NCBI GenBank assembly: GCA_012103575.1
Contig: WLWN01000001.1
Span: 75,792-139,791, forward strand
DNA length: 64,000 nt
Source: Kiritimatiellia bacterium
GTDB lineage: Bacteria; Verrucomicrobiota; Kiritimatiellia; WLWN01
Reading direction: 5' to 3'
The translations under genes were made by a program, and so were the position numbers. The notes beneath the pieces are model-generated. The model worked only from the letters and a program-made list of their open reading frames with translations, did not search any database and was not told the origin of the DNA. Positions 3,217-51,338 of this stretch are shown piece after piece. Numbering within the stretch: position 1 is the stretch's first letter; every line of letters begins with the position of its first letter.

Positions 3217-3344
3217 TGGATCTCCTAGTTTAGTTTTTCACACAAAATTGGTATACTATTTTTGCTTCTATTCATACTAGAGTATTTAACGATTGAAATG
3301 CCTCGCTAGCAGAAGTCCGGCGGCGTGCGATAGATGCCTACAAA

Positions 3345-3707
3345 ATGGGCAAAGGTTCCCAGGCCGATATCGCATCTTCTTATCGTGTAGATCTTAGAAC
3401 GTTTCAGCGTGGGCTCTCTCGTTTCAACGAAACCGGACAGACCGCTCCCCGACCGCGTGGGCATCGCCAGGCCCTCTACAGCGGAAAGCAGCTCAAGGCG
3501 TTGGCTCAACTGGGGGGCAAACATCCCGATGCAACGCTTGAAGAACTCAAGAACATGAGCGGCGTGAAGGGGTCGATCATGGCCGTACAGCGGGCGTTGA
3601 ATCGGTTGGGCTGCCGGTATAAAAGAAACGCTTCACGCCAGCGAGCAAGACCGGGCGGATGTAAATCTCTTGAGAAAGCAGTGGATCCAAGAAGTGGCCA
3701 AACTTGA
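3345..3707 (+). CDS. IS630 transposase, N-terminal HTH part (orfA)
   Basis: 120 aa helix-turn-helix-like region; overlaps orfB by 38 nt suggesting frameshift expression or decay. Confidence 0.7.
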   Translation: MGKGSQADIASSYRVDLRTFQRGLSRFNETGQTAPRPRGHRQALYSGKQLKALAQLGGKHPDATLEELKNMSGVKGSIMAVQRALNRLGCRYKRNASRQRARPGGCKSLEKAVDPRSGQT

Positions 3708-4233
3708 TCCAAGTCGCCTTGTCTTTATTGATGAATCCGGGGCGAAAACGAATATGACTTGTCTGCGGGGCCGGGCGTTGGGCGGGAACAGGCTTTTTGC
3801 CAAAACGCCTCATGGACATTGGTGTACCACCGCCTTGATTTCTTCGGTCCGCCTGGACGGAACAACAGCGGCCATGGAGGGGGAGGGGGCGACAGAGACG
3901 GCTGTTTTTGGAGAATATATTCGCCGGGTTCTTCTCCCGACTCTTTCACCTGAAGACATCGTCATCATGGACAATCTTTGCGTCCATTACAATCCCAGGG
4001 TCATTGAACTCATTGAGTCATGTGGGGCCCATGTAAGATTCCTTCCACCCTACAGCCCCGATTCCAACCCCATTGAAAAAATGTGGGGCAAGATAAAGAA
4101 TCGGTTGGGCAGCCTTGCAGCCCGCAGTCATCAGGAACTATCTGAAGCGCTCACACAAGCGTTCGAAGAGGTTTCTCCCGACGAGGTAATCGGCTGGTTT
4201 TCTTCGTGCTACATCGCGACACCTCAATCGTGA
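3670..4233 (+). CDS. IS630 transposase, DDE catalytic part (orfB)
   Basis: 187 aa; DDE_3-type motif VIMDNLCVH...FLPPYSPDSNPIEKMWGKIK. Confidence 0.8.
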   Translation: MRKQWIQEVAKLDPSRLVFIDESGAKTNMTCLRGRALGGNRLFAKTPHGHWCTTALISSVRLDGTTAAMEGEGATETAVFGEYIRRVLLPTLSPEDIVIMDNLCVHYNPRVIELIESCGAHVRFLPPYSPDSNPIEKMWGKIKNRLGSLAARSHQELSEALTQAFEEVSPDEVIGWFSSCYIATPQS

Positions 4234-4459
4234 AGCGCTCTAATGCCAGGCGCTAAAGGAAGGAACGGCATTCATGTGAGAAAGTTCAAAACAGAGAGAA
4301 ACACGTGGGCACCCTGCAGGAGAGTTCAACGTTTCGCGTGAACACCCTGCACGGTTGCCATGAAGCAGAGCTTTTGATTTTTCCTTTTTTATACGAACAA
4401 TCCCTTTCCTATACCGGCTGCGCCATGAAGCGTGGTTCGCGCAGCGAAGCTCTGCTTCA

Positions 4460-8880: not shown

Positions 8881-10253
8881 TTAGAGTATTGTTAAAGGTG
8901 CACGGAGGGCTATGCGAAGGAATGGGGCAATATCTTGTATCACTTCAAACCAGCAACAACGCTTGCCAAAGTGAAGTTCAATTCGTCCGGCGTGGCGGAC
9001 CAATCGAACCGCGCAATAAACGATATTTTTGAGAACCGTTTTGATTCGCCAGCACGGGATGTTGATTTTTTGCGGGGCAAGCCCAGCCCGTTTGATGACC
9101 TCTTGGCCAAGACCGCGCAATAGGTTGAAGGCCACCATGGCGCATAACAAAATAATCTTATTGGCACAGAGTCTCCCCGAAGGCAATCGCTCAACATCAA
9201 GATCGCTTTTGAGTTCACTGTGGTACTGCTCGCTGGGGCCATGTCCATGATAGAGATCTAGCACCGTCTTGGCACGACAAGAGAGGTTCGTCTACCAGGT
9301 GTTCACCTCAAGTTTAGGAACCAGAAGTTTCTGACCATCGATATCGATGGTGCGTTCAATCACTTCGAAGGCCACCGGGACACAAGGGCGGTTTTGGTCA
9401 CCACCGGGATGGAAATGATCGAAAAAGCCTGTGTAAACGTTCTTGCCTTCACGACTGTCTTGTTTGTCTCCAACTCGGCGTGCAAGGGCCAGCATTTGTT
9501 CAGGACATTCGCGGTGAGGATTTCGCTTTACGATAAAATAATGATCCCCAAAAGCGTCGAAGTTATCGGCCGCAGCGTTGCCACTATCAAGCCGAAGCAA
9601 ACATTTTCCACCTAGGCCCAGGGTTTGGAGCGTTTCAACGCTGCGGGCAATAAACGCGGTCGTTCCCGACTGACAATGTTGTTTACCGGGTCGAAGTTCG
9701 CACTCAAGCATGTGGCCTTGAGTGCCCACATAGGCAAATATCGGGGCGTAACCATCATGGCCCTTATAGGTATAGGAAACGCCTTCTTTCGAAGAGCCTG
9801 AGTGATCCAAAGGGCTCACATCGATATCGACGGGAACAAGATCAAGCCCTTCGACATCTACCTAGCCAAAGGGGCCCGAGGAAAGAAGTTCGGTGTTGAG
9901 TTTGCGTAGCCCCACATGGGTTCTGGCTGGGGGCAGGTCGTCGGAACGACATCGGAACACCGGCTCAGAAGCTACCTTTTTAACTCCCCTTTTAAAGTCC
10001 AAAGGCATTCATAAAAATCTCATCACCCCGGTACAGGTCGATATCATTGAAAATCGGTTCGACCGTTGCAAAGTAAGCCGATCTGGGTAAGGAGGATCTC
10101 CCGATCAGAGATCGCATCGGAGCGGCGTGGTTGAAAATTGGAGGGAAGAATCTGTTGAGCATGATCCTCAAGCAGCAGGCCGCAAAGATGATTTCCGCTT
10201 GTGCTGTTGAGTTCGCCCTTGCCAGTCTTTATTTTATATTGTTTCATATACAC
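8881..10253 (-). pseudogene. IS1380-family transposase, disrupted (in-frame TAG at 9292-9294 plus further breaks)
   Basis: ORFs 9292-9819 and 8881-9264 are in the same frame separated by TAG; motifs GHDGYAPIFAY...LRPGKQHCQSG...RLDSG and C-terminal HSELKSD...LPSG...AFNLLR. Confidence 0.55.
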
Positions 10254-10327: not shown

Positions 10328-10702
10328 TCAGATTTTGTCTGACGGATTCAGGAGATACCCTTTAGTGAGAGTTAGGTCTGAGATAACAAAATGACTCGCA
10401 TAGCTCTTGAAAATCCGGCTACTATTATCTCCACTAATGGTCAGATTTGTTCGACCTGGCCCAATAATGGTTAAGTCCTGGTTAATATCAATTTGACCGG
10501 TAGTAAGCGTGATGGTTGCACCGTCGAGAATATTTGCAAAAACAATGGTGTCTCCAGGTGCAGCTATTCCAACGGTGTCTCGCAATGAGCCTGGACCATT
10601 ATCCATTGAATTGAGCACAGTCAACGTTGCTCCCTCACTGGATACTACCAAAAAAATTAAGAACAGGATTAAAAAAGCTACGTAACGGAATGTATTGTTT
10701 AT
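10328..10702 (-). pseudogene. N-terminal fragment of a large beta-helix surface protein (signal peptide + GSLRD...TIVF...ITL...LTISG start)
   Basis: ORF reads straight out of the MITE at 10703; only ~100 aa of beta-helix before stop; no ATG start. Confidence 0.4.
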
Positions 10703-10865
10703 CCTGGATCCGTCAGTTAAACGCGGTTTTCTGCACGAACCATTTGGGCCAAAAGGAATTACAAAAAAGCCTCGACGCACCCAGCGGGTGCGCCTGCGTT
10801 TTTTTGCAACCTTTTGCCTCCAAAGCATTCGCACAGAAATCCCACGTTTAACTGACGGATCCAGG
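10703..10865 (+). mobile_element. MITE-1 copy 1 (163 bp, 21-bp perfect TIR CCTGGATCCGTCAGTTAAACG)
   Basis: Near-identical to copies at 15947-16109, 36061-36223 (inverted) and 51184-51338 (left TIR truncated). Confidence 0.75.
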
Positions 10866-12255
10866 GTTCAATATCACCTGGCACACCATCATTATCTGTG
10901 TCAGTAGACACGTCATAAACACGGGCAAACCACGTATAGGCTCCTGATAATGGATTTTCTCCAATATCAGATAGTGATGAACTCAAAACAGCTCGGTAAT
11001 AACCAGGCCCAAGATTTGTACTAAAACTTTGCAAGGCTACATTAAAATCATTTTCATAGGTAAATTACGCTTCCTGTCACAACCACATCATCCACAGTAC
11101 TATGAATCCCATCTGGACCCGCCTCAAAAATGGCAAAGGAACTGATATCTAATGTTGATGCATCCATAGGCTCACTGAATGTAGCTGAAAAGACAGAAAG
11201 ATCTTTGAGCAACGACCCGTTCTTAGGTGTCACCGCTTTTACCTGGGGTGAGGTCGCATCAAGTAGAAGTGTTACAACAATGTTACTACTCCACGTTGCA
11301 TTTCCTCCTGTATCACTGGCACGTGTTTGAATTGAAAATGTGGACTGCTCGGTTAATCGAGGGGTTATGAAATGATATTCAAACGGGAAGTTTCCATCGG
11401 TAGGGGCTTTGATTCCATCAATATAAAACTCAACATTACGAATTTGGACATCATCATTCACCTCAACGTTAATGCGGACCCATTTCCCTTCTTCAGCTTG
11501 GGGAGGATTTAAGGAAAAGTTGGCTGACAACGTAGCAGACGGAGGATTTCCTGCCGTATCCGCAGATAAGTAATTGATGACCTGCAGACCGGCGCTGTGA
11601 TCGGCTACATAGGCTTGGCCATTATATATGGAGACCGCACGGGCAATCCCTGGTGTTTGGTGTTCGGTGATAGTTGAAGGCATTTACATTACTCGGGTTA
11701 CTGACATTGTATAAAGAAATGTTGTGAGCGCCATCCAATGTACTATTAGGACTCACTGCAGCAATACCCAACCCTGAACCATTCACGACCATGTGTTTCC
11801 AACCAAACTGCGAGGCTGATAAGTTATCAACAGGGGATCAGCAGGATCACTGACATCAAGCGTATTATACCCTCTACGATATATTGTGTAGGCAATGTCA
11901 TTTCCGACAAACAAACGCATTCGCCCACTGCCTGAACTCGGTGTACCCGGTGAAGAAACCGAGCCAAGGATTTGCATAGACCCCTTTTAGTATTCTAGAA
12001 TATGAAAAGCCCTTAAAGCAAGGACATATAAGTAATTTCCTGAAAAAACCACGTCATGGACCTCGTAAAGGAAAGAGTATGTTTCAAGAACCTCACCACT
12101 CCCTAAATCAACTTCACATACTTTGCTATTAAAACCATTGGCAATCCCCACAAAGGCGATCCCTCCTGCGGCAGCAACAGCCCGTGTAAAACCTATAAAG
12201 TTGACTTGATGGGTAATAGAGGCCAACGCTGGATCAGTAATGTCAATGATAGCTA
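10866..12255 (-). pseudogene. LVIVD-repeat/beta-propeller-like surface protein, fragmented (4 ORF pieces), 5' cut by IS630, 3' interrupted by MITE-1
   Basis: ORF fragments 10759-11034, 11054-11683, 11783-11977, 11987-12226 in different frames; repeated YVADHSAGLQVIN / NYLYVLA type motifs. Confidence 0.4.
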
Positions 12256-12863
12256 GAGCGCTTCACGATTGAGGTGTCGTGATGTAGCACGAAGAAAACC
12301 AGCCGATTACCTCGTCGGGAGAAAAACCCGGCGAATACATTCTCCAAAAACAGCCGTCTCTGTCGCCCCCTCCCCCTCCATGGCCGCTGTTGTTCCGTCC
12401 AGGCGGACCGAAGAAATCAAGGTGGTGGTACACCAATGTCCATAAGGCGTTTTGGCAAAAAGCCTGTTCCCGCCCAACGCCCGGCCCCGCAGACGAGTCA
12501 TATTCGTTTTCGCCCCGGATTCATCAATAAAGACAAGGCGACTTGGATCAAGTTTGGCCACCTCTTGGATCCACTGCTTTCTCAAGAGATTTACATCCGC
12601 CCGGTAACGCCTTGAGCTGCTTTCCGCTGTAGAGGGCCTGACGATGCCCACGCGGTCGGGGAGCGGTCTGTCCGGTTTCGTTGAAACGAGAGAGCCCACG
12701 CTGAAACGTTCTAAGATCTACACGATAAGAAGATGCGATATCGGCCTGGGAACCTTTGCCCATTTTGTAGGCATCTATCGCACGCCGCCGGATTTCTGCT
12801 GTTGCTATACTCGTGTCATGGAGTATAGATCTTCTAGAGAGGCATTTCAATCGTTAGATGCTC
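12256..12863 (-). mobile_element. IS630-family element, internally deleted copy (TA-flanked)
   Basis: Same termini as other copies; TA at 12254-12255 and 12864-12865; DDE region deleted at junction GGGAGAAAAACCCGG. Confidence 0.75.
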
Positions 12864-12867
12864 TAAT

Positions 12868-14566
12868 GTGTCTGCTCAAGGTGTCGACTTTACCACATTG
12901 TTCGATCCTGTTACGTGGAGCTTAACGACGGGTTATTACGCAATACGAGCCAGAAGTGAAGATTCATTTGGGCAATCCGATAATTTCCAGCCAGACATCA
13001 GCGGTGTAGGCGCTGATACCTCTGGTAAGACCACAGCAGAATGGCATAGAGATTTGGGTGTAATTAGAGTAATAGAAATTATTCTCCCTCCGGTAGACTT
13101 GGACATTGATTCTGACAATAACAATAGATTAGGCATTCCGGATAGAAGTACTACAGAGGATGAGGGTGAAGACGTTTTGGGGAATTCCGCTCAACCTGGA
13201 AAATTTATAGAGGTAAGCACAGAAGACGCAGACAATGACAATATACCTGACTTTGCAGATGGATTTAACCTCGATGGAATGGGTGGAAATGATGACGATA
13301 CCTCTGTTGGTGTAGGGTTTATACCTTTAGTCTTTGAATTGGCAGGCGTCACAAATCTAGAAGTTGCCGAAAATAAGGCTTACATATAACGCATCCGATC
13401 CATTGGGGGTTGCTGTGTCGGGGACATCCACGAATCGAACCTATACACCTGGGGCAGGTGGCTTGCGGATATGGACCGAAGATGGTGGGGTCGTTCGGAA
13501 TGGAAATCAGGTACATGTCGGTGGAAATTTTATTTCTTCGAGTGTTTATGATGCGACCAATTTGGGTTTCTCAATGAACAACCTTATTGTTACATCCTAT
13601 GTCGAAGGGATATGGGGAAGCGCATCTGTAGCGGATCAACACATTCTAGTTGAGGTAGATCCTGATGGGTCAGCTGGAGCAGGGTTCGTGCATAGTGATG
13701 CGGTTCGGGTTACTCTGCTTGAGTTAACCTTTTCTAGCGATGAGACAGGGAATCTATATCTACCTGCATTTAACGGCTCGACTAATGTGGCAAGGTTAGA
13801 TGAATTCAGGTTTTTAGTGGGGGAAAACCGCGCGATACTGGGTAAAGTGTCCGGGAGTTTGGATAGGAGTTTTACCTTTGAAGTTGTGGGAGATAGTATT
13901 CCGGCTATTCCGCCCGTGCCCGCTTTGGGTAATTTAGCAAATAGTGGGTTTTCTTTTACACCTAATGCCACGTTAGGGAATCGACCTCTCGGAACAACAG
14001 CAATTCCCGCTGTACGCTATACCGTTAGTATTAAAAACTCACTAGGAACGGTTGTGGTTGACAAGACTATATCCCAAGATCTGATTGACCGAGTACGGCA
14101 AGAATATATAGATCGTTTTATTCATCACGGTACTGGTTTTACAGCAGGGAGTATAGGGTTGGTTTCTCATGCCCCTTCTCGCGATGAGGTTAAGCGTGCG
14201 CCATCTATACAAGTGGGTGGACCTGGACCTATTGGAAACTGTAGGGATTGGCCGAATCCGAATTATACAGAATCGGGAATAGGCATTGTGTGGGATCAAG
14301 GGTCTGTTGATCTTATTAACAATATTCGGTTAAACATGGGTCCTGATACGGTCTGCCTTCATAGCGGGCATAGGAGTCCGTCTCATAATCAGCGAGTAAA
14401 CGGTGCGACTAATAGTGACCACCAATGGGGACGGGCCGCAGACATGTCTTATGAAAATACGGTGGTAGTGGGTACCGTTGCAGCAGCTTTATTTCACTTG
14501 CGTCTCTATCGGGTTGCTCTTGGAGAGACAACGGGTCAGATTCTGCTTGAGCTGAATTCAGCCTAA
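12868..14566 (+). CDS. secreted acidic protein with C-terminal peptidase M15 (VanY/zinc D-Ala-D-Ala carboxypeptidase-like) domain; 5' end abuts IS630, internal frameshift near 13364-13389
   Basis: Two overlapping ORFs (12868-13389, 13364-14566); motif HSGHRSPSHNQRVNGATNSDHQWGRAADM resembles the M15 SGYRSPxxN...SxHxxGxAADi signature; D-rich possible Ca-binding stretch. Confidence 0.45.
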
Positions 14567-14994
14567 CGACTACCCAACCGATGGGATCCACCTCCAACCA
14601 ATCATACGTTTGTTGCGATATCAGGAAACGCCAATTGGCAAGTGGAAGTCGAAGACAGTAATCAAGATGGTCTGCCGGATCAAGTAAACGCGGTAATGGG
14701 CACGATTCCAAATGCTACAGATTTAGTTTGGAATGGGGGAGGGACAAGTAATCCTCCGCTTAGGGTTTTAGATGGAAATAATAATAACCAAATCGATGTT
14801 GGGGAAACGTTAGTGATCATCTATAACGGGACACATACGCTTTTCGAACGATTTTCTGGAGCTAGCCATATCCATGCAGAAACCAATTAAGAAAAAAGGA
14901 AAGACTTTATTGACGGAGTGTTTAATTCATGCGAAGCAGAGTGATGAGTCAAGAAGGCCTTAGACTATGAAAAATAGATCATGGGAGAAAGAGA

Positions 14995-15290
14995 CAGCGC
15001 CCCTCCAGGGCGCAGGATCTGTTCTCATGACCTTTCCTGGGGTTAAAACCCCAGGCTATATACCCTCACTGCGTTGCAGTGAAACAGGATTGAAGAGGTT
15101 GGAATTATGGATGAGATTGAAACTCTAGGTGGCATGTCCACACTGCATTGCAGTGAAGAAAGGTCGGATTTTGTATGGCGACAAATATGATGATTCCAAA
15201 GATGTCCCAACGGGACAAGGTGATACAGCCTGGGGTTTTGACCCCAGGAACGAGGGAACAACCCTTCCATTGCGCCCTGAAGGGGCGCTG
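14995..15290. repeat. MITE-2 copy 1 (hairpin-rich ~296-bp element with palindromic ends GCGCCCCTCCAGGGCGC / GCGCCCTGAAGGGGCGC)
   Basis: Second copy at 15615-15896; internal perfect palindromes CCTGGGGTTAAAACCCCAGG. Confidence 0.6.
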
Positions 15291-15348
15291 TTGAGGAGAG
15301 GAAAATGAGGAAAATAATGTTTAATTTAAATTTTACAGAAGGAGAAAA

Positions 15349-15594: not shown

Positions 15595-15614
15595 ATCATG
15601 GGTGAAGAAGGTAC

Positions 15615-15896
15615 GGCACCCCTTCAGGGCGCAAGATCTTTTTTCATTACGTCTCCTGGGGTTGAAACCCCAGGCTATGCGTTGCAGTGAAAGAGGATGG
15701 AAGATGTTGGAATTATAGACGAGGTTGGACAGGTTGGCATGTTCACACATCATTGCAGTGAAGAGAGATCGGATTTTATAGGGTGACGAATATGATGACT
15801 CAAAAAGATGTCCCAATGGGACAAGGTGATACAGCCTGGGGTTTCAACCCCAGGAACCAGAAAACAATCATCCCATTGCGCCCTGAAGGGGCGCTG
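15615..15896. repeat. MITE-2 copy 2
   Basis: Near-identical architecture to 14995-15290 with scattered substitutions. Confidence 0.6.
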
Positions 15897-15946
15897 TCTA
15901 ATGAAAAAGAGTAAGAGCATGAATAAAGAACGTATAAATATAATAG

Positions 15947-16109
15947 CCTGGATCCGTCAGTTAAACGCGGTTTTCTGCACGAACCATTTGGGCCAAAAGG
16001 AATTACAAAAGAGCCTCGACGCACCCAGCAGGTGCGCCTGCGTTTTTTTGCAACCTTTTGCCTCCAAAGCATTCGCACAGAAATCCCACGTTTAACTGAC
16101 GGATCCAGG
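15947..16109 (+). mobile_element. MITE-1 copy 2
   Basis: Perfect TIRs; same internal sequence as copy 1. Confidence 0.75.
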
Positions 16110-16170: not shown

Positions 16171-17148
16171 ATGATCTTTCTCTTGTATGCGACAACCTCG
16201 ACAGCTAATCCTCTGGTCACGGTTACATCAAAAGTCGTGGGGACTCAACTGGAAGTTTCTCCCGTGCAAATGGCGGTGCCAAAAGGAATCGCCGGGTCTG
16301 TAAATGTGAACATTGTAGCAGGACTTGGAGGTGAAAATGAAACATCCCTTGCCCTAGCCGATGGCGTTCATATTGAGGCAACCCTACGGGGTCCTTCTTT
16401 TGCGGCCCGACAAACCTTTGGTCGCCCAAATGAACCCCTGTTGTTCCCGCCATTACCGCTAGTCGGCGATTATCAACTCGATGCTATTAAGCTGGTCGAT
16501 TCTGCAACCGGTAAAATCCGCCTCGAAGGTTCCCCCTCAAGCATCCCTATTTTTGTATTCAAAGAAGTGCTGGTTACCCGGGTAACTTCACGGCCGTTAA
16601 CCCTCGACGAGATTCAGGAAAAAGGGATTTTGATCGATGAATCCAATTTTCGGGCGGTGGAATTTGAAGTGGGGTTTGTGATCGACGGAAAAACGGTTCC
16701 GGTCAAGTTACCGGTGATTGCCCCCACGTTTAAAGAAGCCACAGAAATTATTCCTCAAGCAGAAATCGATGAAAAGATGGCGGCAGCCAATGTGATGAAT
16801 CAGCAACTTTCTCAGACAGCGGAGTTACCGCCGGAACTGGAAGCCGCAGGTCTAAACATTGAAATTCAAGGCATCAATTTTCAGTTTGTGGATACAACTT
16901 TAGAATTAGGTCTTGCTCTACAACCTCCTCCGATTCCTGCATTGATGGTGATTCCGGGGAATATTGGTTTTATCAATCAGTTTTTTAGTGTTCAGATTTT
17001 TATGGAAAATGGGGTGCCGGGAGGTTCGGGACTTAACGTGCATAATATGCAGGCCGAACTACTCCTGCCGGTGGGATCGGATTTGGTAGCTGGAACGTAT
17101 GAGGTTTCCGGCGATGATCCATTGCGTTTTGCGCGGACAGGAACGAAT
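16171..17148 (+). CDS. hypothetical protein fragment, 3' end runs into IS30
   Basis: ORF 16171-17187 continues into the IS30 left end at 17149; no recognisable motifs. Confidence 0.35.
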
Positions 17149-18194
17149 GGTAGAGTAACAATACAAGTGCAAAGGTCCGCAGCATAGTTCATTCTTTGGG
17201 TATCTGACCCCCCCCCAAAGGAGAACATAGAATGCCACGAACCTACGAACATTTAAACCGTTATGAACGAGAAGTGATAGCCCAGATGCTAAAAGAAAAA
17301 TATAGCTTATCTCAAATTGGCCGTCGCCTGGGCCGATCCCCCTCGACTATTTGGCGCGAATTTCGCCGTAATCGAGTCCGTGGCCGCTATTACCCAAGAC
17401 CCGCAAATGGCCTGGCTCAAAGCCGATTACAGCTAGCTCGAAAGCCTCAAAAAGTGATGGGAGCTAGCAAAGAACAAGTGGAGACTCTCCTGGCGAATAT
17501 TGGTCTCCAGAACAGATTGAAGGTCGAGGAAAGCTAGAAGGTGACCCTCCCATCAGTCGAATGATGATCTACCGCTACTTGTACAGTCCAAGAGGGGCTG
17601 GCTACCGAAAATACCTGCGTGGCCCCGGAAAGAAAAAACGAGCGACTCGGAAAAGCCATTCACGTATACACAACCAAACGATGATTGACCAACGCCCCGA
17701 AGAGGGTGAAAGTCGCAAGGTGGCAGGCCATTGGGAAGGTGACACTATTCAGGGCCAAACGAGAAAAGAGGCCTGTGTAGTCACTCTAGTAGATCGAGCG
17801 ACTCGATATCTCATCGCCGATCTTTTACCTCGATGCAATGCCGAATCGGTCAACCGTTCCGTACCTCAGTTCGCTGATTCAGGGCTCCCCTTTAAAACGG
17901 TGACTGTAGATAATGGCATGGAGTTTGCCAGCCATGCTAAACTACAGAAAAAAATAGCAACCCCCATTTTCTTTGCTGAAGGGAGAAACCCTTGGCAAAG
18001 AGGGAGCAACGAAAATACGAATGGTTTGCTTCGCCAGTTTTTCCCGAAGAAAACCGACTTTGCTGCCCACAGCTCCGCTCAGTTGAGCTGGGCTGTGGAG
18101 TTACTGAATAATAGGCCGAGAAAATGCTTAGAATATAGAACGCCCAAAGAAATGATGGACAGCTTCGGTTTTGCACTTGTAAGTTGAGTCTGCA
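17149..18194 (+). mobile_element. IS30-family element (type 1), transposase frameshifted
   Basis: Transposase split into ORFs 17232-17537 and 17561-18187 by a 1-nt deletion (GAATATTGG versus GAAGTATTGG in the intact copy). Confidence 0.8.
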
Positions 18195-32308: not shown

Positions 32309-33357
32309 GGTAGAGTAACAATACAAATGCAAAGGTCCGCAGCATAGTTCATTCTTTGGGTATCTGACCCCCCCCAAAGGAGAACATAGAATGCCACGAA
32401 CCTACGAACATTTAAACCGTTATGAACGAGAAGTGATAGCCCAGATGCTAAAAGAAAAATATAGCTTATCTCAAATTGGCCGTCACCTGGGCCGATCCCC
32501 CTCGACTATTTGGCGCGAATTTCGCCGTAATCGAGTCCGTGGCCGCTATTACCCAAGACCCGCAAATGGCCTGGCTCAAAGCCGATTACAGCTAGCTCGA
32601 AAGCCTCAAAAAGTGATGGGAGCTAGCAAAGAACAAGTGGAGACTCTCCTGGCGAAGTATTGGTCTCCAGAACAGATTGAAGGTCGAAGAAAGCTAGAAG
32701 GTGACCCTCCCATCAGTCGAATGACGATCTACCGCTACTTGTACAGTCCAAGAGGGGCTGGCTACCGAAAATACCTGCGTGGCCCCGGAAAGAAAAAACG
32801 AGCGACTCGGAAAAGCCATTCACGTATACACAACCAAACGATGATTGACCAACGCCCCGAAGAGGGTGAAAGCCGCAAGGTGGCAGGCCATTGGGAAGGT
32901 GACACTATTCAGGGCCAAACGAGAAAAGAGGCCTGTGTAGTCACTCTAGTAGATCGAGCGACTCGATATCTCATCGCCGATCTTTTACCTCGATGCAATG
33001 CCGAATCGGTCAACCGTTCCGTACCTCAGTTCGCTGATTCAGGGCTCCCCTGTAAAACGGTGACTGTAGATAATGGCATGGAGTTTGCCAGCCATGCTAA
33101 ACTACAGAAAAAAATAGCAACCCCCATTTTCTTTGCTGAAGGGAGAAACCCTTGGCAAAGAGGGAGCAACGAAAACACGAATGGTTTGCTTCGCCAGTTT
33201 TTCCCGAAGAAAACCGACTTTGCTGCCCACAGCTCCGCTCAGTTGAGCTGGGCTGTAGAGTTACTGAATAATAGACCGAGAAAATGCTTAGAATATAGAA
33301 CGCCCAAAGAAATGATGGACAGCTTCGGTTTTGCACTTGTAAGTCTCCACCTCTGCA
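32309..33357 (+). mobile_element. IS30-family element (type 1), apparently intact
   Basis: Left end GGTAGAGTAACAATACAA..., right end ...TTTTGCACTTGTAAGT...TGCA; single 323-aa transposase ORF. Confidence 0.85.
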
Positions 33358-33362
33358 AATGA
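32391..33362 (+). CDS. IS30-family transposase (323 aa, intact)
   Basis: HTH N-terminus; DDE block GHWEGDTI...TVTVDNGMEF...NPWQRGSNENTNGLLRQF. Confidence 0.85.
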   Translation: MPRTYEHLNRYEREVIAQMLKEKYSLSQIGRHLGRSPSTIWREFRRNRVRGRYYPRPANGLAQSRLQLARKPQKVMGASKEQVETLLAKYWSPEQIEGRRKLEGDPPISRMTIYRYLYSPRGAGYRKYLRGPGKKKRATRKSHSRIHNQTMIDQRPEEGESRKVAGHWEGDTIQGQTRKEACVVTLVDRATRYLIADLLPRCNAESVNRSVPQFADSGLPCKTVTVDNGMEFASHAKLQKKIATPIFFAEGRNPWQRGSNENTNGLLRQFFPKKTDFAAHSSAQLSWAVELLNNRPRKCLEYRTPKEMMDSFGFALVSLHLCK

Positions 33363-36060: not shown

Positions 36061-36223
36061 CCTGGATCCGTTAGTTAGACGTGGGATTTCTGTGCGAATG
36101 CTTTGGAGGCAAAAGGTTGCAAAAAAACGCAGGCGCACCCGCTGGGTGTGTCGAGGCTTTTTTGTAATTCCTTTTGGCCCAAATGGTCCGTGCAGAAAAC
36201 CGCGTTTAACTGACGGATCCAGG
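36061..36223 (-). mobile_element. MITE-1 copy 3 (inverted orientation)
   Basis: Perfect TIRs; located 18 bp upstream of tadA start. Confidence 0.75.
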
Positions 36224-40159: not shown

Positions 40160-41206
40160 GGTAGAGTAACAATACAAGTGCAAAGGTCCGCAGCATAGTT
40201 CATTCTTTGGGTATCTGCCCCCCCCCAAAGGAGAACATAGAATGCCACGAACCTACGAACATTTAAACCGTTATGAACGAGAAGTGATAGCCCAGATGCT
40301 AAAAGAAAAATATAGCTTATCTCAAATTGGCCGTCGCCTGGGCCGATCCCCCTCGACTATTTGGCGCGAATTTCGCCGTAATCGAGTCTGTGGCCGCTAT
40401 TACCCAAGATCCGCAAATGGCCTGGCTCAAAGCCGATTACAGCTAGCTCGAAAGCCTCAAAAAGTGATGGGAGCTAGCAAAGAACAAGTGGAGACTCTCC
40501 TGGCGAAGTATTGGTCTCCAGAACAGATTGAAGGTCGAAGAAAGCTAGAAGGTGACCCCTCCCATCAGTCGAATGACGATCTACCGCTACTTGTACAGTC
40601 CAAGAGGGGCTGGCTACCGAAAATACCTGCGTGGCCCCGGAAAGAAAAAACGAGCGACTCGGAAAAGCCATTCACGTATACACAACCAAACGATGATTGA
40701 CCAACGCCCCGAAGAGGGTGAAAGTCGCAAGGTGGCAGGCCATTGGGAAGGTGACACTATTCAGGGCCAAACGAGAAAAGAGGCCTGTGTAGTCACTCTA
40801 GTAGATCGAGCGACTCAATATCTCATCGCCGATCTTTTACCTCGATGCAATGCCGAATCGGTCAACCGTTCCGTACCTCAGTTCGCTGATTCAGGGCTCC
40901 CCTGTAAAACGGTGACTGTAGATAATGGCATGGAGTTTGCCAGCCATGCTAAACTACAGAAAAAAATAGCAACCCCCATTTTCTTTGCTGAAGGGAGAAA
41001 CCCTTGGCAAAGAGGGAGCAACGAAAACACGAATGGTTTGCTTCGCCAGTTTTTCCCGAAGAAAACCGACTTTGCTGCCCACAGCTCCGCTCAGTTGAGC
41101 TGGGCTGTAGAGTTACTGAATAATAGACCGAGAAAATGCTTAGAATATAGAACGCCCAAAGAAATGATGGACAGCTTCGGTTTTGCACTTGTAAGTTGAG
41201 TCTGCA
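40160..41206 (+). mobile_element. IS30-family element (type 1), transposase frameshifted
   Basis: Transposase split into ORFs 40242-40700 and 40552-41199 by a 1-nt insertion in a C-run (GACCCCTCCC versus GACCCTCCC). Confidence 0.8.
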
Positions 41207-42641: not shown

Positions 42642-43867
42642 GGTGGATTGTAAAATTAAATGCCGCAAAAAATGGACCTGAGAGCTTCTGCTCATGCGGC
42701 GATCTCCAAATCGAAACACTCCTGTGCGGGTTTGTATTCTAGGATCTTGCGAGGATAGTTGTTAATCCATTTTTCAATCTCACCAATACGGTCGATGGTA
42801 TATTTTCCGATGTTGTCTCCTTTGGCGACGAAACGACAAACCATACGGTTGGCATTTTCGTTGGAGCCTCGTTCCCAGGAAGAATACGGGTGAGCATAAT
42901 AGAGTTTAACACGTCTCTTTTTGCTAAATCCGGAACGTTCCATCTGCTCCACGTCGAGAAGCTCGCTCCCGTTATCGGCTGTAATCGACTTGAACATCGA
43001 TCTGAATGGGCCAACTCCCGTCGATCTTTCGATCGCTTTGAGGGCCTGCAGAACCGATGCCTGTGTTTTATCCGAAAGTTTTCTCACCCTTAGCATTCGG
43101 GTCTTTCTTTCTACTAACGTCATTAAAACCGGTTTTGAAGTTCCTTTTCCGCCGACGATCAAATCCAATTCCCAGTGCCCAAATTCCTCGCGTTTTTCTA
43201 CGGTCTTAGGTCGTTTTTCGATACTGGTCCTTCGGGCATGTTGCTTTTTAACCCGCTTAATAGCACGTCTTTTTCGTTTTATCCGTTTTCGTTTTTCCCA
43301 TAGGGACTCGTTGCTCACCCCCGGGATGAGACCTTGGTCAATATAGGTATACAGCGTTTTTGTACTCACCGCTGCAGGTCTCTGCTCTTGTTTAAGCAAA
43401 GGAGCAACCACATCGGGTGAGCGTTTGTGAACAAGAATGTGCTCGCTGGTAAACACGGCCGCTTCATGATGCTTTCCAAGCTTAAGCTCAGGTCCCTTGG
43501 CCGTCGCATTTAGATCATGAAGTTCCTGGGCTCGATCACTGCTGTATGCTTTCTTCTTTCGCGGCTCTGTATCGAAATGCTCTACCTCCCCACGTTTGAT
43601 TTCGCGCTCTATGGTTCGACGATGCCTTCCCAGATAGCTAGTAGCTATCTCCAAAGGACGTCCTCGGTTTTTGAGCATTGTTTCAATCATGATCCGTTCT
43701 TTCTGTGTCAAATGCTTGCCTTTTCGGGGATGAATACTACTCTTGATTTGTTCCATGTCTTTTTCCTTTTTTTGTCTTCTGTCGAGTTTCTAAATCTAGA
43801 AGATTTCGGCATGGAACACTCCTGTTTTACAATATCTTCTTTTGGGCATTTAATATTACAATTCTCA
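42642..43867 (-). mobile_element. IS30-family element (type 2), copy A
   Basis: Ends TGAGAATTGTAATATTAAATGCC / GGCATTTAATTTTACAATCC; near-identical to copy at 49959-51183 in inverted orientation. Confidence 0.75.
42692..43756 (-). CDS. IS30-family transposase (354 aa)
   Basis: GHWELDLIVGG...ITADNGSEL...YYAHPYSSWERGSNENANRMV DDE block. Confidence 0.8.
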   Translation of the reverse strand: MEQIKSSIHPRKGKHLTQKERIMIETMLKNRGRPLEIATSYLGRHRRTIEREIKRGEVEHFDTEPRKKKAYSSDRAQELHDLNATAKGPELKLGKHHEAAVFTSEHILVHKRSPDVVAPLLKQEQRPAAVSTKTLYTYIDQGLIPGVSNESLWEKRKRIKRKRRAIKRVKKQHARRTSIEKRPKTVEKREEFGHWELDLIVGGKGTSKPVLMTLVERKTRMLRVRKLSDKTQASVLQALKAIERSTGVGPFRSMFKSITADNGSELLDVEQMERSGFSKKRRVKLYYAHPYSSWERGSNENANRMVCRFVAKGDNIGKYTIDRIGEIEKWINNYPRKILEYKPAQECFDLEIAA

Positions 43868-45435: not shown

Positions 45436-46031
45436 CTAACTTAAGCATGATTTCCTTTTGTTTAACCAATGGCGATTTCTGTGAGCAGGCACAATCATTT
45501 CGTGCCTTGGTTTAGTCAGCAAATGATAGTTTTTTCGTCGTCTCTTTACAGCTCGAGGTTCACTTCTGCCAGGGCGTTGCCGCAAGGGTCTTTGGGTCAT
45601 GCTTTCATAGAGCATAAAAATCAAACCGAAACGTTCCTTCCGACTCATTCTCGCTTGATTTAGATTCGGCTCCCAACTGCGCAAGGCTTGAAGCGAAGTT
45701 TTGAAGCTAATTTGCCGAACGGGCAAACCAGCCTCTTCAGCCGCCTCATACATGATCCGGCGCATGCAGTTGTAGGCAATAAAATACATCACCATCTCTT
45801 TTCGGATCATTTCCGGGCTCTTGCATCGTAAGATATCCATACCCAGCGTTGTTTTTATATCACGGAAAAAGAGTTCAACATCCCAACGCCGAAAATACAC
45901 ATCGGCTAAATCTTTGGCAGGGTACTTTTCTGCATCTAATAATGTGGTGACCAGATAGATCACTTTAGATCGAAAGCCGGGCTGATTGATCGTTATTTTA
46001 ACTTGGCGTAGGAACAAACTAGAGCGCTTCA
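45436..46031 (-). pseudogene. IS4-family (DDE_Tnp_1) transposase, C-terminal fragment; 5' part removed by IS630 insertion
   Basis: YFRRWDVELFFRDIKTTLGMD (Y-R-E-K signature) ; ORF 45436-46056 runs into IS630 end. Confidence 0.6.
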
Positions 46032-46871
46032 CGATTGAGGTGTCGCGATGTAGCACGAAGAAAACCAGCCGATTACCTCGTCGGGAGAAACCTCTTCGGA
46101 CGCTTGTGTGATCGCTTCAGATAGTTCCTGCTGACTGCGGGCTGCAAGGCTGCCCAACCGATTCTTTATCTTGCCCCATATTTTTTCAATGGGGTTGGAA
46201 TCGGGGCTGTAGGGTGGAAGGAATCTTACATGGGCCCCACATGACTCAGTGAGTTCAATGACCTTGGGATTGTGATGGACGCGAAGATTGTCCATGATGA
46301 CGATGTCTTCAGGTGAAAGGGTCGGGAGAAAAACCCGGCGAATATATTCTCCAAAAACAACCGTCTCTGTCGCCCCCTCCCCCTCCATGGCCGCTGTTGT
46401 TCCGTCCAGGCGGACCGAAGAAATCAAGGTGGTGGTACACCAATGTCCATGAGACGTTTTGGCAAAAAGCCTGTTCCCGCCCAACGCCCGGCCCCGCAGA
46501 CGAGTCATATTCGTTTTCGCCCCGGATTCATCAATAAAGACAAGGCGACTTGGATCAAGTTTGGCCACCTCGTTGGATCCACTGCTTTCTCAAGAGATTT
46601 ACATCCGCCCGGTAACGCCTTGAGCTGCTTTCCGCTGTAGAGGGCCTGACAATGCCCACGCGGTCGGGGAGCGGTCTGTCCGGTTTCGTTGAAACGAGAG
46701 AGCCCACGCTGAAACGTTCTAAGATCTACACGATAAGAAGATGCGATATCGGCCTGGGAACCTTTGCCCATTTTGTAGGCATCTATCGCACGCCGCCGGA
46801 TTTCTGCTGTTGCTATACTCGTGTCATGGAGTATAGATCTTCTAAAGAGGCATTTCAATCGTTAAATGCTC
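46032..46871 (-). mobile_element. IS630-family element with ~150-bp internal deletion (TA-flanked)
   Basis: TA at 46030-46031 and 46872-46873; transposase ORFs 46505-46858 and 46029-46568. Confidence 0.8.
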
Positions 46872-47450: not shown

Positions 47451-49125
47451 CTATTCAGCTTTCGAACCCTCAGGGACTATTCGTGTAACTCCCCATCTGG
47501 AGATCGCCACGTGGTTGTATTGAATCGTGTTGAAAGCGGTCAGGATCAGGCTGTTTACAAGATTCGTGTCCGTTGTCGGCCAAGTCGATCGTGTTTCACT
47601 TCCGAGCGTAAGCGTTCCTCCAATCGTTAATCCGCCACTGATGGTATCACCTGCTTTATTGACATAGTTCGTCAACTGACTGGATGAAGCAAAGGTAGAG
47701 GCATCCAGACCGTCGAGCAGGTCCGCATTCCAATTCGTCCACAGAGTTGTGGAGGCCGTGCTCTTCTGGTTGAAATTAATCTGCTCATTTCCGTCATAGG
47801 TTATCGTTCCATCTATAAAATCGATTTCACTGCGATCATTCGACCCGGGATTAATACCTATATCACGAATATTCAGGGCACCGGTCATCGTGTCGCCCGC
47901 TTTGGTCACATAACGTCCATCGGCGGCGTTAGTGCTTATCGTTTCTGGCCAGGTGGTCAGCGCCGTCCCACCAAGCGTTAACGATTGGGCACTTACATCT
48001 CCGCCTACCGACAGGCTCCCACTGACCGCTCCTCCCATTTTATCTACATAATTGGTCAACTGACTATTTTGAGCAAAGCTCGAGGACTCCAACCCGTCAA
48101 TGAGATCCGCATTCCAATTCGTCCACAGAGTCGTGGAAGCCGTACTTTTCTAGCTAAAATTGATCTGTTCGGTGCCATCATAAGTTATTGTTCCATCTAT
48201 AAAGTCAATTTCACCACGATCGTTTGACCCGGGGTTAATACCGATGTCGCGAATATTCAGAGCGCCGGTCATGGTATCGCCCGCCTTGGTCACATAGCGA
48301 CCATCGGCGGCATTAGTGCTTATCGTTTCTGGCCAGGTGGTCAGCGCCGTCCCACCAAGCGTTAACGATTGGGCACTTACATCTTCGCCTACCGACAAGC
48401 TCTCACTCACGGCTCCTCCCGTTTTATCTACATAATTGGTCAACTGACTATTTTAGACAAACGTCGAGGCCTCTAAACCGTCAATGAGATCGGCATTCCA
48501 ATTTGTCCATAGAGTTGTGGAGGCCGTACTCTTCTGGTTGAAAATTGATCTGTTCGGTGCCGCCGTAAGTTATCGTCCCATCTATAAAGTCGATTTCACC
48601 ATCCTGATTCGACCCGGGGTTAGCCCCAATATGACTAACTTCCAGTGGGCCGGTCATCGTGTCTCCTGATTTGCTTACATAACAACCATCGGCGGCATTG
48701 GTGCTTATGGTTTCCGACCAATTGGTGATCGCTGTCCCGTCCAGCGTCGACGATTGAGCGACGCTTACATCTCCTGATACTGACAAGCCACCACTGATCG
48801 TATCACCTGTTTTATTCACATAACGACCATCAGCCTGATTCGTGCTTATCGTCTCTAGCCAGTTCGTAATCGTGCTCCCATTAAGAGTCAAGGAACCCGC
48901 CGTTACATCAGCGTCTACCGTCAGATCTTGTTTGAACAGCACATTACTGTTTACCGCTAGATCACCTTCCATGATAATGGCATTAGTTGCTATTTCTGCC
49001 TGAATGAGTAAAGAGAAGCTCAACAGAACCCCTAAAAAACAAAAACACCGCCTCAGAGAATAAAACCCAAAGAAAGAGGGGGGGAAGGAATCTTTATGGT
49101 TGGTCTCAAACAGTTGTCTTTTCAT
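47451..49125 (-). pseudogene. phage-tail-fibre-repeat protein with signal peptide, interrupted by a TAG, a TAA and a 1-nt insertion
   Basis: Three ORF pieces (48481-49125, 48150-48443, 47451-48092); recurring DGRYV(T/N)K(A/T)GDT(M/I)(T/S)G motif; tandem 384-bp units. Confidence 0.55.
47657..48808. repeat. tandem repeat, period 384 bp (128 codons), about 3 units, inside the tail-fibre-like gene
   Basis: TATCTACATAATTGGTCAACTGACTA recurs at 48041 and 48425; diverged homologue at 47657. Confidence 0.7.
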
Positions 49126-49883: not shown

Positions 49884-49958
49884 TCATCCTAAACACTATC
49901 TCCTTTTTATATTTAAAAAATGACAATGGAAAGATTTAAAGATTGTGTCAACTAAAAT

Positions 49959-51183
49959 GAGAATTGTAATATTAAATGCCCAAAAGAAGATATTGTAAAA
50001 CAGGAGTGTTCCATGCCGAAATCTTCTAGATTTAAAAACTCGACAGAAGACAAAAAAAGGAGAAAGACATGGAACAAATCAAGAGTAGTATTCATCCCCG
50101 AAAAGGCAAGCATTTGACACAGAAAGAACGGATCATGATTGAAACAATGCTCAAAAACCCAGGACGTCCTTTGGAGATAGCTACTAGCTATCTGGGAAGG
50201 CATCGTCGAACCATAGAGCGCGAAATCAAACGTGGGGAGGTAGAGCATTTCGATACAGAGCCGCGAAAGAAGAAAGCATACAGCAGTGATCGAGCCCAGG
50301 AACTTCATGATCTAAATGCGACGGCCAAGGGACCTGAGCTTAAGCTTGGAAAGCATCATGAAACGGCTGTGTTTATCAGCGAGCACATTCTTGCTCACAA
50401 GCGCTCACCCGATGTGGTTGCTCCTTTGCTTAAACAAGAGCAGAGACCTGCAGCGGTGAGTACAAAAACGCTGTATACCTATATTGACCAAGGTCTCATC
50501 CCGGGGGTGAGCAACGAGTCCCTATGGGAAAAACGAAAACGGATAAAACGAAAAAGACGTGCTATTAAGCGGGTTAAAAAGCAACATGCCCGAAGGACCA
50601 GTATCGAAAAACGACCTAAAACCGTAGAAAAACGCGAGGAATCTGGGCACTGGGAATTGGATTTGATCGTCGGCGGAAAAGGAACTTCAAAACCGGTTTT
50701 AATGACGTTAGTAGAAAGAAAGACCCGAATGCTAAGGGTGAGAAAACTTTCGGATAAAACACAGGCATCGGTTCTGCAGGCCCTCAAAGCGATCGAAAGA
50801 TCGATGGGAGTTGGCCCATTCAGATCGATGTTCAAGTCGATTACAGCCGATAACGGGAGCGAGTTTCTCGACGTGGAGCAGATGGAACGTTCCGGATTTA
50901 GCAAAAAGAGACGTGTTAAACTCTATTATGCTCACCCGTATTCTTCCTGGGAACGAGGCTCCAACGAAAATGCCAACCGTATGGTTTGTCGTTTCGTCGC
51001 CAAAGGAGACAACATCGGAAAATATACCATCGACCGTATTGGTGAGATTGAAAAGCGGATTAACAACTATCCTCGCAAGATCCTAGAATACAAACCCGCA
51101 CAGGAGTGTTTCGATTTGGAGATCGCCGCATGAACAGAAGCTCTCAGGTCCATTTTTTGCGGCATTTAATTTTACAATCCACC
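49959..51183 (+). mobile_element. IS30-family element (type 2), copy B
   Basis: Same termini as copy A; right end abuts a MITE-1 copy lacking its first ~8 TIR nucleotides. Confidence 0.75.
50069..51133 (+). CDS. IS30-family transposase (354 aa)
   Basis: Near-identical to 42692-43756 product (few substitutions). Confidence 0.8.
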   Translation: MEQIKSSIHPRKGKHLTQKERIMIETMLKNPGRPLEIATSYLGRHRRTIEREIKRGEVEHFDTEPRKKKAYSSDRAQELHDLNATAKGPELKLGKHHETAVFISEHILAHKRSPDVVAPLLKQEQRPAAVSTKTLYTYIDQGLIPGVSNESLWEKRKRIKRKRRAIKRVKKQHARRTSIEKRPKTVEKREESGHWELDLIVGGKGTSKPVLMTLVERKTRMLRVRKLSDKTQASVLQALKAIERSMGVGPFRSMFKSITADNGSEFLDVEQMERSGFSKKRRVKLYYAHPYSSWERGSNENANRMVCRFVAKGDNIGKYTIDRIGEIEKRINNYPRKILEYKPAQECFDLEIAA

Positions 51184-51338
51184 CGTCAGTTAAACGCGGT
51201 TTTCTGCATGAACCATTTGGGCCAAAAGGAATTACAAAAAAACCTCGACGCACCCAGTGGGTGCGCCTGCGTTTTTTTGCAACCTTTTGCCTCCAAAGCA
51301 TTCGCACAGAAATCCCACGTTTAACTGACGGATCCAGG
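51184..51338 (+). mobile_element. MITE-1 copy 4 (left TIR truncated at IS junction)
   Basis: Begins CGTCAGTTAAACG directly after IS30 type 2 end; right TIR intact; ends 25 bp upstream of serS ATG. Confidence 0.65.

Follow-up and report, generated by a model that had tools for sequence, protein, structure and literature searches.

A stretch of 64,000 nucleotides (the window) from a metagenome-assembled genome (MAG) of a Kiritimatiellae bacterium (GCA_012103575.1, contig WLWN01000001.1, positions 75,792 to 139,791) carries on its plus strand, at window positions 12868-14890, what is very probably a pseudogene, a non-functional remnant of ~675 codons from the 3' end of a gene that encoded a giant secreted or surface protein. 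At its C-terminal end, this ancestral protein would have had an acidic domain of ~230 amino acids (aa) followed by a module of ~375 aa, in which a beta-sandwich and a helix precede a zinc peptidase of the LAS/M15 kind. Three lesions have broken the gene. The upstream part, including any start codon, signal peptide and promoter, is missing at the edge of an insertion sequence (IS) of the IS630 family; an insertion or deletion (indel) of one base at 13366-13376 shifts the frame inside the acidic domain; and a nonsense codon at 14564-14566, most simply a change of CAA to TAA, parts the His, Asp and putative catalytic Glu of the peptidase core (14420, 14441 and 14549) from its H-x-H motif (14867-14875). 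In all likelihood no functional product is made from the locus.

Owing to the 5' truncation, the frameshift and the TAA, the locus has neither a start and N-terminus nor a reading frame that runs unbroken through the complete domains. A first-pass annotation of this DNA had described the sequence from 12868 to 14566 as a possible remnant of a larger protein, and this description holds. The feature does start at the IS boundary as that annotation had it, but it does not end at 14566 because the peptidase domain runs on to a native stop codon at 14888-14890. Three open reading frames (ORFs) can be read from the locus, of which ORF-B is entered at NCBI as the hypothetical protein NKB22882.1 (GKR87_00480) of a Kiritimatiellae bacterium MAG. 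The sole stop between ORF-B and ORF-C is the TAA at 14564-14566. The G+C content of the locus is 45.6%, versus 45.1% for the window. No further piece of the gene was found elsewhere in the 64-kb window when all 78 homologues were used in tblastn searches. The features of the locus and of its left border are as follows.

11054-12262, minus strand: LVIVD / Big_7 / Big_5 pseudogene, 5'-truncated at the same IS630 copy (Pfam; tblastn with homologue P0029)
12256-12863, minus strand: IS630-family element, the local copy, 608 bp (repeat families and four-copy alignment)
12868-13389, plus strand: ORF-A, 173 aa, frame 1
13364-14566, plus strand: ORF-B, 400 aa from a TTG, frame 2; 383 aa if the start is at 13415
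14642-14890, plus strand: ORF-C, 82 aa, same frame as ORF-B
12868-13050, plus strand: tail of an upstream beta-rich domain and site of the 5' truncation (P0013 and P0017 align to merged residues 24-159)
13051-13771, plus strand: acidic domain of ~230 aa, interrupted by the frameshift (DLDIDSDNNN ... NDNIPDFADGFN ... RIWT ... VEVDPDG)
13366-13376, plus strand: frameshift site, frame 1 to frame 2, a single-base indel in GCCGAAAATAAGG (homologue alignments)
13760-14074, plus strand: N-terminal part of the module, a beta-sandwich (HMMER matches, alignments and AlphaFold2 model)
14075-14266, plus strand: conserved helix and linker with the QD..RQEYID motif (HMMER matches, alignments and AlphaFold2 model)
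14267-14563, plus strand: first part of the LAS/M15 core (SGHR, H-x6-D, LLE)
14564-14566, plus strand: premature in-frame TAA within the catalytic domain (homologues align across it)
14567-14839, plus strand: beta-rich insertion of ~105 aa, 3' of the premature stop (LLPxRWxPP, DxxxDGLPD, GGG..NP, DVGE)
14840-14890, plus strand: last strand of the LAS core with H-x-H (SHIHA, the invariant His pair) and native stop, where the closest homologues also end

Frameshift and premature stop codon

The conceptually joined protein was used as the query in a first homologue search, which matched 18 proteins of 370-1170 aa from MAGs of Planctomycetota, Lentisphaerae and Tepidisphaeraceae as well as from metagenomes. 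All 18 give a continuous alignment to joined residues ~62-300 that crosses the frameshift. At the DNA level (tblastn), the homologues leave frame 1 and go on in frame 2 at 13370-13377 without any loss of residues; residues 490-588 of homologue P0010, for example, match 13072-13377 in frame 1 and its residues 586-711 match 13370-13738 in frame 2. The apparent frameshift that had been reported near 13364-13389 is therefore real and is placed at 13366-13376 by the homologue alignments. Judged from these alignments, it is a single-base indel which could be either the loss of an A from the A-run or the gain of a G, the homologues being compatible with both.

The TAA at 14564-14566 falls at module position 269, and 17 homologues align across it in one stretch. 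Glutamine occupies the stop column in nine of these 17 homologues, and since it is the commonest residue there, CAA to TAA is the simplest change that would account for the stop. TAA is an ordinary stop codon in the window, where it ends 11 of the 34 long ORFs, and the genetic code is the standard one.

Alternatively, the frameshift and the stop could be sequencing or assembly errors of a long-read hybrid assembly, the gene being intact downstream of the IS. MAGs of the Mycale hentscheli sponge study were obtained by PacBio and Illumina hybrid assembly, with paired-end (PE150) Illumina reads for each specimen (PMC7157528). This paper discusses a single Kiritimatiellaeota MAG, 'Candidatus Patea custodiens', which is the probable source of the window. 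The window comes from such a hybrid MAG, and the indel adjoins a run of four A. This explanation is nevertheless extremely improbable. Three assemblies, namely the window, the separate metagenome assembly GCA_012267705.1 (contig WLWF01009984) and the independent Logan assembly of SRR10090328, agree at 100% identity over the broken sequence, frameshift included, and 12 contigs contain exactly this ORF. SRR10090328 is one read set of the sponge metagenome study, most of whose read sets are Illumina, and the broken allele thus recurs in an assembly made from short reads only. A substitution that creates a TAA is untypical of long-read error, and systematic indel errors are hard to reconcile with the more than 30 long ORFs that are intact in other parts of the window. 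Long runs of intact genes occupy 17.9-35 kb and 51-63 kb of the window, which argues that the lesions do not reflect a general problem of assembly quality.

Truncation at the IS630 element

Truncation of the gene at the IS630 boundary at 12863, which the first-pass annotation had pointed out, was verified by an alignment of the four IS630-family copies in the window (~1902-2470, 3296-4240 in inverted orientation, 12256-12863 and 46021-46870). All four have terminal inverted repeats of ~20 bp (GAGCGCTTCACGATTGA...) with TA on each side, which in the local copy lies at 12254-12255 and 12864-12865. Relative to the copy at 46021-46870, the local copy has an internal deletion of ~231 bp, and its transposase is frameshifted. 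Pfam assigns HTH_29 and DDE_3 to this transposase, with DDE_3 covering only positions 1-71 of 146; in the inverted copy at 3296-4240 the DDE_3 match spans positions 1-141 of 146 with an expect value (E) of 2e-27. A transposase with helix-turn-helix (HTH) and DDE_3 domains, terminal inverted repeats and flanking TA are the pattern of the IS630 family. The element has the two transposase domains, the inverted repeats and the TA duplication, and its local copy is defective. As a separate observation, the four copies carry differing internal deletions or frameshifts, and the inverted pair could drive inversions of the 8-kb segment in between.

A simple insertion of the element into the gene was considered and rejected. 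The plus-strand frame opens inside the IS630 end, its first start codon being GTG at 12868, and excision of the element in silico did not restore the ORF, as the frame gains only 13 codons before it meets a stop. To the left of the element lies a different gene, itself broken and on the minus strand. Since TA borders every IS630 copy, its presence here says nothing about a former contiguity of the two flanks. That excision fails, that the left flank is different and that the window holds no other fragment of the gene together indicate that the 5' part was lost or moved. The loss probably occurred through recombination between IS copies or another IS-mediated rearrangement.

The zinc-peptidase module

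The module, represented by ORF-B residues 133-400 joined through an X to ORF-C, was used as the query in an exhaustive HMMER search of 1.84 billion representatives, which returned 59 matches. Homologue P0021 (2597 aa) is 53% identical to the window module with E 7e-123, and P0021, P0022-P0026, P0028-P0033 and others align to it in a single stretch from query position ~2 to 375. When a word-indexed protein search was used with the module instead, its one match was the query protein.

A C-terminal signature of M15-type zinc peptidases had been recognized in the first-pass annotation, which proposed a profile search and a structure prediction as checks, and both came out in its favour. Pfam family Peptidase_M15_3 (PF08291) matches ORF-B residues 315-366 with E 6.6e-8 and 33.1 bits, above the cut-off of 23.2 bits. 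For the window copy as well as for all homologues scanned, the match covers only positions 29-79 of the 108 in the profile, and it ends at position 79 because of an insertion of ~105 aa in the core. Read-through translations, with the stop replaced by X or with a switch to the third frame, left the match no longer; a continuation in the third frame ('DGIHLQ') was dropped since the homologues continue in the same frame. The only sequence match in the PDB is 1lbu (E 0.003 for the sequence alone, 2.2e-7 for the family profile), and its alignment places the Arg of SGHR, the His of SDH and the Asp of AAD in the window opposite R138, H154 and D161. PHROG 894, an endolysin family, matches with E 1.2e-7 over a stretch limited to 50 residues. 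Nothing significant was found in NCBIfam. Based on the Pfam match, the 1lbu match and the fold match, HSGHRSPSHN...SDHQWGRAAD is a genuine M15/LAS zinc-peptidase core.

The H-x(6)-D zinc-ligand motif, as defined in PMC6027127, is present as SDHQWGRAAD, with the His at 14420-14422 and the Asp at 14441-14443, and is invariant in 18 sequences. The Arg of SGHR is encoded at 14372-14374, and the Glu of LLE, which is putatively catalytic, at 14549-14551. The H-x-H motif is present as SHIHA, whose two His residues (H370 and H372, encoded at 14867-14869 and 14873-14875) are invariant in all 18 sequences; its consensus in the alignment, 'A(T/S)H(V/I)HA', closes the module. In motif and position, SHIHA resembles the H195/H197 pair of 1lbu (DHTHVA, residues 194-199) and is its likely equivalent. 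The motif exists in the DNA but lies 3' of the premature TAA, inside ORF-C and outside the annotated ORF. Of the core, the annotated ORF contains the H-x6-D half and ORF-C the H-x-H half, the two being separated by the nonsense codon; the window copy as it stands cannot encode an entire domain. The spacing from the Asp to H-x-H is 34 residues in 1lbu versus 142 in the window module, which indicates that the ~105-aa insertion lies between the zinc-ligand motifs. Invariant residues of the insertion are P272, P278, D299, D303 and G326, and it shows a weak match to the TSP3-like region of CglD.

An AlphaFold2 model of the window module, computed with X at the stop and 17 homologue segments as the alignment, has a mean predicted local distance difference test score (pLDDT) of 91.8 and a predicted template modelling score (pTM) of 0.87. 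In the model, a beta-sandwich (~20-105) and a long helix (108-126, containing QD..RQEYID) are followed by an alpha/beta core (170-268), the beta-rich insertion (270-360) and a helix and strand that bear H-x-H. The predicted structure has the LAS fold, typified by a central sheet with the zinc site, at which the zinc ligands would converge. A Foldseek search against the PDB gave no significant match to the module as a whole. The core itself belongs to the known M15/LAS kind, and Pfam and NCBIfam have no models for its large insertion, for the dedicated sandwich and helix or for its occurrence on giant surface proteins. Among the conserved columns of the module, 22 are invariant and 11 nearly so, and all 33 residues, including R205, H221, D228, E264, H370 and H372, are intact in the window copy.

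Loss of function and its timing

Because all 33 of these residues are still present, the decay of the gene is probably recent. The same observation also favors a rival explanation, namely that the locus is functional and that ORF-B, with 383 or 400 aa, is expressed from an outward-reading or upstream transcript as a truncated binding protein or peptidase, possibly one part of a split enzyme completed by ORF-C. NCBI annotates ORF-B as a protein, and the LAS core is divided between two successive ORFs that share a frame. This explanation is very unlikely, however, in view of several findings. ORF-B is without a signal peptide, and no sigma-70-like promoter was found on the plus strand of the locus. 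The first ~130 residues of ORF-B are the back half of the frameshifted domain, whereas the third zinc ligand and the last strand of the core lie outside ORF-B. A two-ORF organization occurs in none of the 59 homologues, and the neighboring genes are decaying too.

A number of points weigh against the interpretation of the locus as a decayed peptidase gene. The three assemblies with the identical broken sequence stem from one study and one host species, so that fixation of the lesions is shown in that population only. The ORF of 383 or 400 aa annotated by NCBI could still be translated from a read-out transcript, and intact conserved residues are also compatible with a gene under selection. The window represents 64 kb of a 3.1-Mb genome, and the 5' part of the gene or an intact paralogue could lie elsewhere. 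Finally, the top structural neighbor of the module is Hedgehog, which is not a proven peptidoglycan enzyme.

The family of giant surface proteins

Full-length homologues, which the first-pass annotation had suggested looking for, do exist and are giant proteins with a complete module. They are 600-3500 aa in length, come from bacteria of the Planctomycetes-Verrucomicrobia-Chlamydiae (PVC) group and from cyanobacteria, and are rich in immunoglobulin (Ig)-like, CARDB, Big, Calx-beta, CarboxypepD_reg, TSP3 and RCC1 domains. Several of them start with sequences which, judged by eye, are signal-peptide- or lipoprotein-like. The source databases label them only as 'hypothetical' or 'Ig-like domain-containing protein', as in Crocosphaera. 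In the closest relatives (P0021-P0025) the module forms the C-terminus; in P0026, P0028-P0031 and P0036 it is internal, and up to 1900 residues come after it. One homologue, P0022, combines the module with a clostripain-type Peptidase_C11 and thus has two different peptidase domains. The genes for P0022 (L003, ENA ERZ25072980 contig_8) and P0021 (L004, Logan SRR33230239) are located in clusters of giant-protein genes, with neighbors that encode proteins of more than 2000 aa and of 1041 aa. No counterpart of the genes beside intact homologues was found in the window.

By analogy with M15 enzymes, there is about an even chance that intact members of the family are surface-tethered, active Zn2+ peptidases which would recognize a free carboxylate through the Arg of SGxR and act on peptidoglycan stem peptides. 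A more tentative possibility is that the intact relatives form an undescribed LAS/M15 subfamily, with the Hedgehog signaling domain and 1lbu as nearest solved folds, which has a core split by the acidic, beta-rich insertion and possibly a non-peptidoglycan extracellular substrate, such as matrix or host surface. If this were true, the sponge symbiont would, with the decay of the gene, have given up a trait of free-living life or of surface interaction.

It has also to be considered whether the module might be a Hedgehog-like Zn/Ca domain acting on molecules of the extracellular matrix or of the host (sponge) surface rather than a cell-wall enzyme. This is a serious alternative but rather unlikely, since by sequence the module matches the DD-carboxypeptidase 1lbu (24% identity) and not Hedgehog (12-19%), and since the carboxylate-binding Arg in SGxR of M15 enzymes is invariant.

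The first-pass annotation had further suggested a remnant of a polymorphic toxin and a link to endolysins. The ancestral protein would then have been a polymorphic toxin or antibacterial effector whose M15 domain cleaved the peptidoglycan of competitors, and the locus would be a decayed cassette. A giant protein with a C-terminal module of the peptidoglycan-peptidase type, as seen in the closest homologues P0021-P0025, would suit such a toxin, as would the match of its 50-residue core to a family of phage endolysins. The proposal is nonetheless improbable. RHS/YD, haemagglutinin-repeat and pre-toxin domains were not found by Pfam in the window copy or in nine homologues; toxin-trafficking domains were likewise missing from the nine homologues and from the window copy, which has lost its N-terminus. 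The module is internal in six homologues (P0026, P0028-P0031 and P0036), and its sequence is conserved rather than variable. No small gene of the immunity type follows in the two intact loci examined: the directly 3' neighbor of the P0021 gene encodes a 1041-aa protein, and the next gene after that for P0022, ~1.2 kb downstream, encodes a 158-aa protein with a Y1_Tnp-like transposase domain. In the window, the sequence after 14890 contains repeats of the miniature inverted-repeat transposable element (MITE) type and no ORF. A toxin remnant is thus not supported, given the missing trafficking and pre-toxin domains, the missing immunity-like genes in the two intact loci and the internal position of the module in several homologues. 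The endolysin link fares no better since the homologues are giant multi-Ig surface proteins; a phage or prophage lysis-cassette context was not found around the locus, whose flanks consist of IS copies and surface-protein remnants.

The acidic domain

The D-rich N-terminal part of the locus (DLDIDSDNNN), which had been noted as possibly calcium-binding, is present and is conserved among homologues. It is a separate domain of ~230 aa. A model of a homologous copy with 50% identity resembles the calcium-binding N-terminal region of arginine deiminases, and by this analogy the acidic domain probably binds calcium. The Pfam families PAD_N and PAD_M do not match the acidic domain. The domain is absent from the sampled module-bearing proteins, and the ancestral combination of the two domains is therefore unrepresented among the matches.

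Neighboring remnants and mobile elements

The minus-strand remnant at 11054-12262 is 31% identical to residues 1412-1799 of the Crocosphaera homologue P0029 (tblastn E 1e-40) and has at least four in-frame stops within the homologous part. In P0029 and P0030, a block of LVIVD, Big_7 and Big_5 comes after an M15 module of the same family, and this domain order suggests that both flanks of the IS630 copy derive from relatives of one protein family. The possibility that the remnant is the inverted continuation of the same gene was rejected since the native stop of the module matches the ends of P0021-P0025. It is more likely that two different genes flank the IS630 copy.

The region from 1.9 to 17.2 kb is a patchwork of mobile elements and gene remnants and contrasts with 17.9-35 kb and 51-63 kb, where the operons are intact. 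Fragments of an IS4-like (DDE_Tnp_1_4) transposase in at least two ORFs lie at 8881-9819 on the minus strand. An IS30-like element with HTH_38 and rve domains occurs in three copies (17150-18187, 32309-33362 and 40160-41199), of which only the middle one has an intact transposase ORF (323 aa). The copy at 17150-18187 adjoins the 3' end of an ORF without a family match (16171-17187) and may have truncated it. A pair of inverted repeats of 1226 nucleotides at 42642-43867 and 49958-51183, which are 99% complementary, brackets 6.1 kb like a composite transposon, and each arm encodes a 354-aa transposase with HTH_38 and rve domains.

A MITE-like dispersed repeat of 166 bp is found at 10700-10865, 15944-16109 and 51173-51338 and, in inverted orientation, at 36061-36223; the copies are 95-98% identical and create spurious ORF segments ('...RKPRLTDGSR...'). 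Just 3' of the pseudogene, a repeat of ~300 bp is present in two copies (14989-15291 and 15608-15897) which are 83-90% identical, lie ~606-619 bp apart and include a GC-rich hairpin at 14997-15013. Three tandem repeats of 384 bp at 47616-48759, which are 75-88% identical, fall in minus-strand ORFs without a Pfam match and probably encode repeated domains of another decayed surface protein. The minus-strand sequence at 49806-49426 is 40% identical to the Ig region of the giant protein P0028.

Implications

The locus represents ordinary gene decay in an IS-rich stretch of a sponge-symbiont genome and is of little weight in itself. Its analysis does correct the annotation: a single pseudogene accounts for three ORFs that are, or could be, annotated separately, and what is entered as a 'hypothetical protein' amounts to one half of a peptidase domain. 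The truncation of two surface-protein genes at the same IS630 copy, together with the additional frameshift and nonsense lesions and the conserved residues that are still intact, fits a recent and ongoing, IS-associated loss of surface proteins in a host-associated bacterium of the Kiritimatiellae. The family of giant surface proteins with an insertion-bearing LAS/M15 peptidase is a target for studies of surface function and of the relations between Hedgehog and DD-peptidases.

Comparison with known systems

The local element is like other members of the IS630 / Tc1-mariner group in that a transposase with HTH and DDE_3 domains, inverted repeats of ~20 bp and flanking TA are found across the four copies in the window. 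It differs in that it is a 608-bp deletion derivative with a frameshifted transposase, and its flanks come from different genes on opposite strands.

The acidic domain may be likened to the N-terminal and middle calcium-binding region of protein-arginine deiminases (PADI6, PDB 9fmn). A deiminase catalytic domain is absent, and the acidic domain occurs as tandem copies in giant bacterial proteins.

The module is most readily compared with the zinc D-Ala-D-Ala carboxypeptidase of Streptomyces albus G (MEROPS M15A, 1lbu), to which it is 24% identical. The module has its own N-terminal beta-sandwich and helix where 1lbu has a peptidoglycan-binding domain, carries the beta-rich insertion of ~105 aa and sits on proteins of 600-3500 aa; the window copy, moreover, is broken. 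PF08291 and PHROG 894 match the SGxR...H-x6-D core significantly, PF08291 above the Pfam cut-off, whereas the insertion displaces what would match the last third of the profile, and the module is without phage context. The N-terminal signaling domain of Hedgehog (Hh), at 12-19% sequence identity, lacks the large insertion. Bacterial Hh/DD-peptidases have been described by Roelink (2018, PMC6027127), and the homologues of the module are not the 'bacHh' proteins of that paper, which are more than 50% identical.

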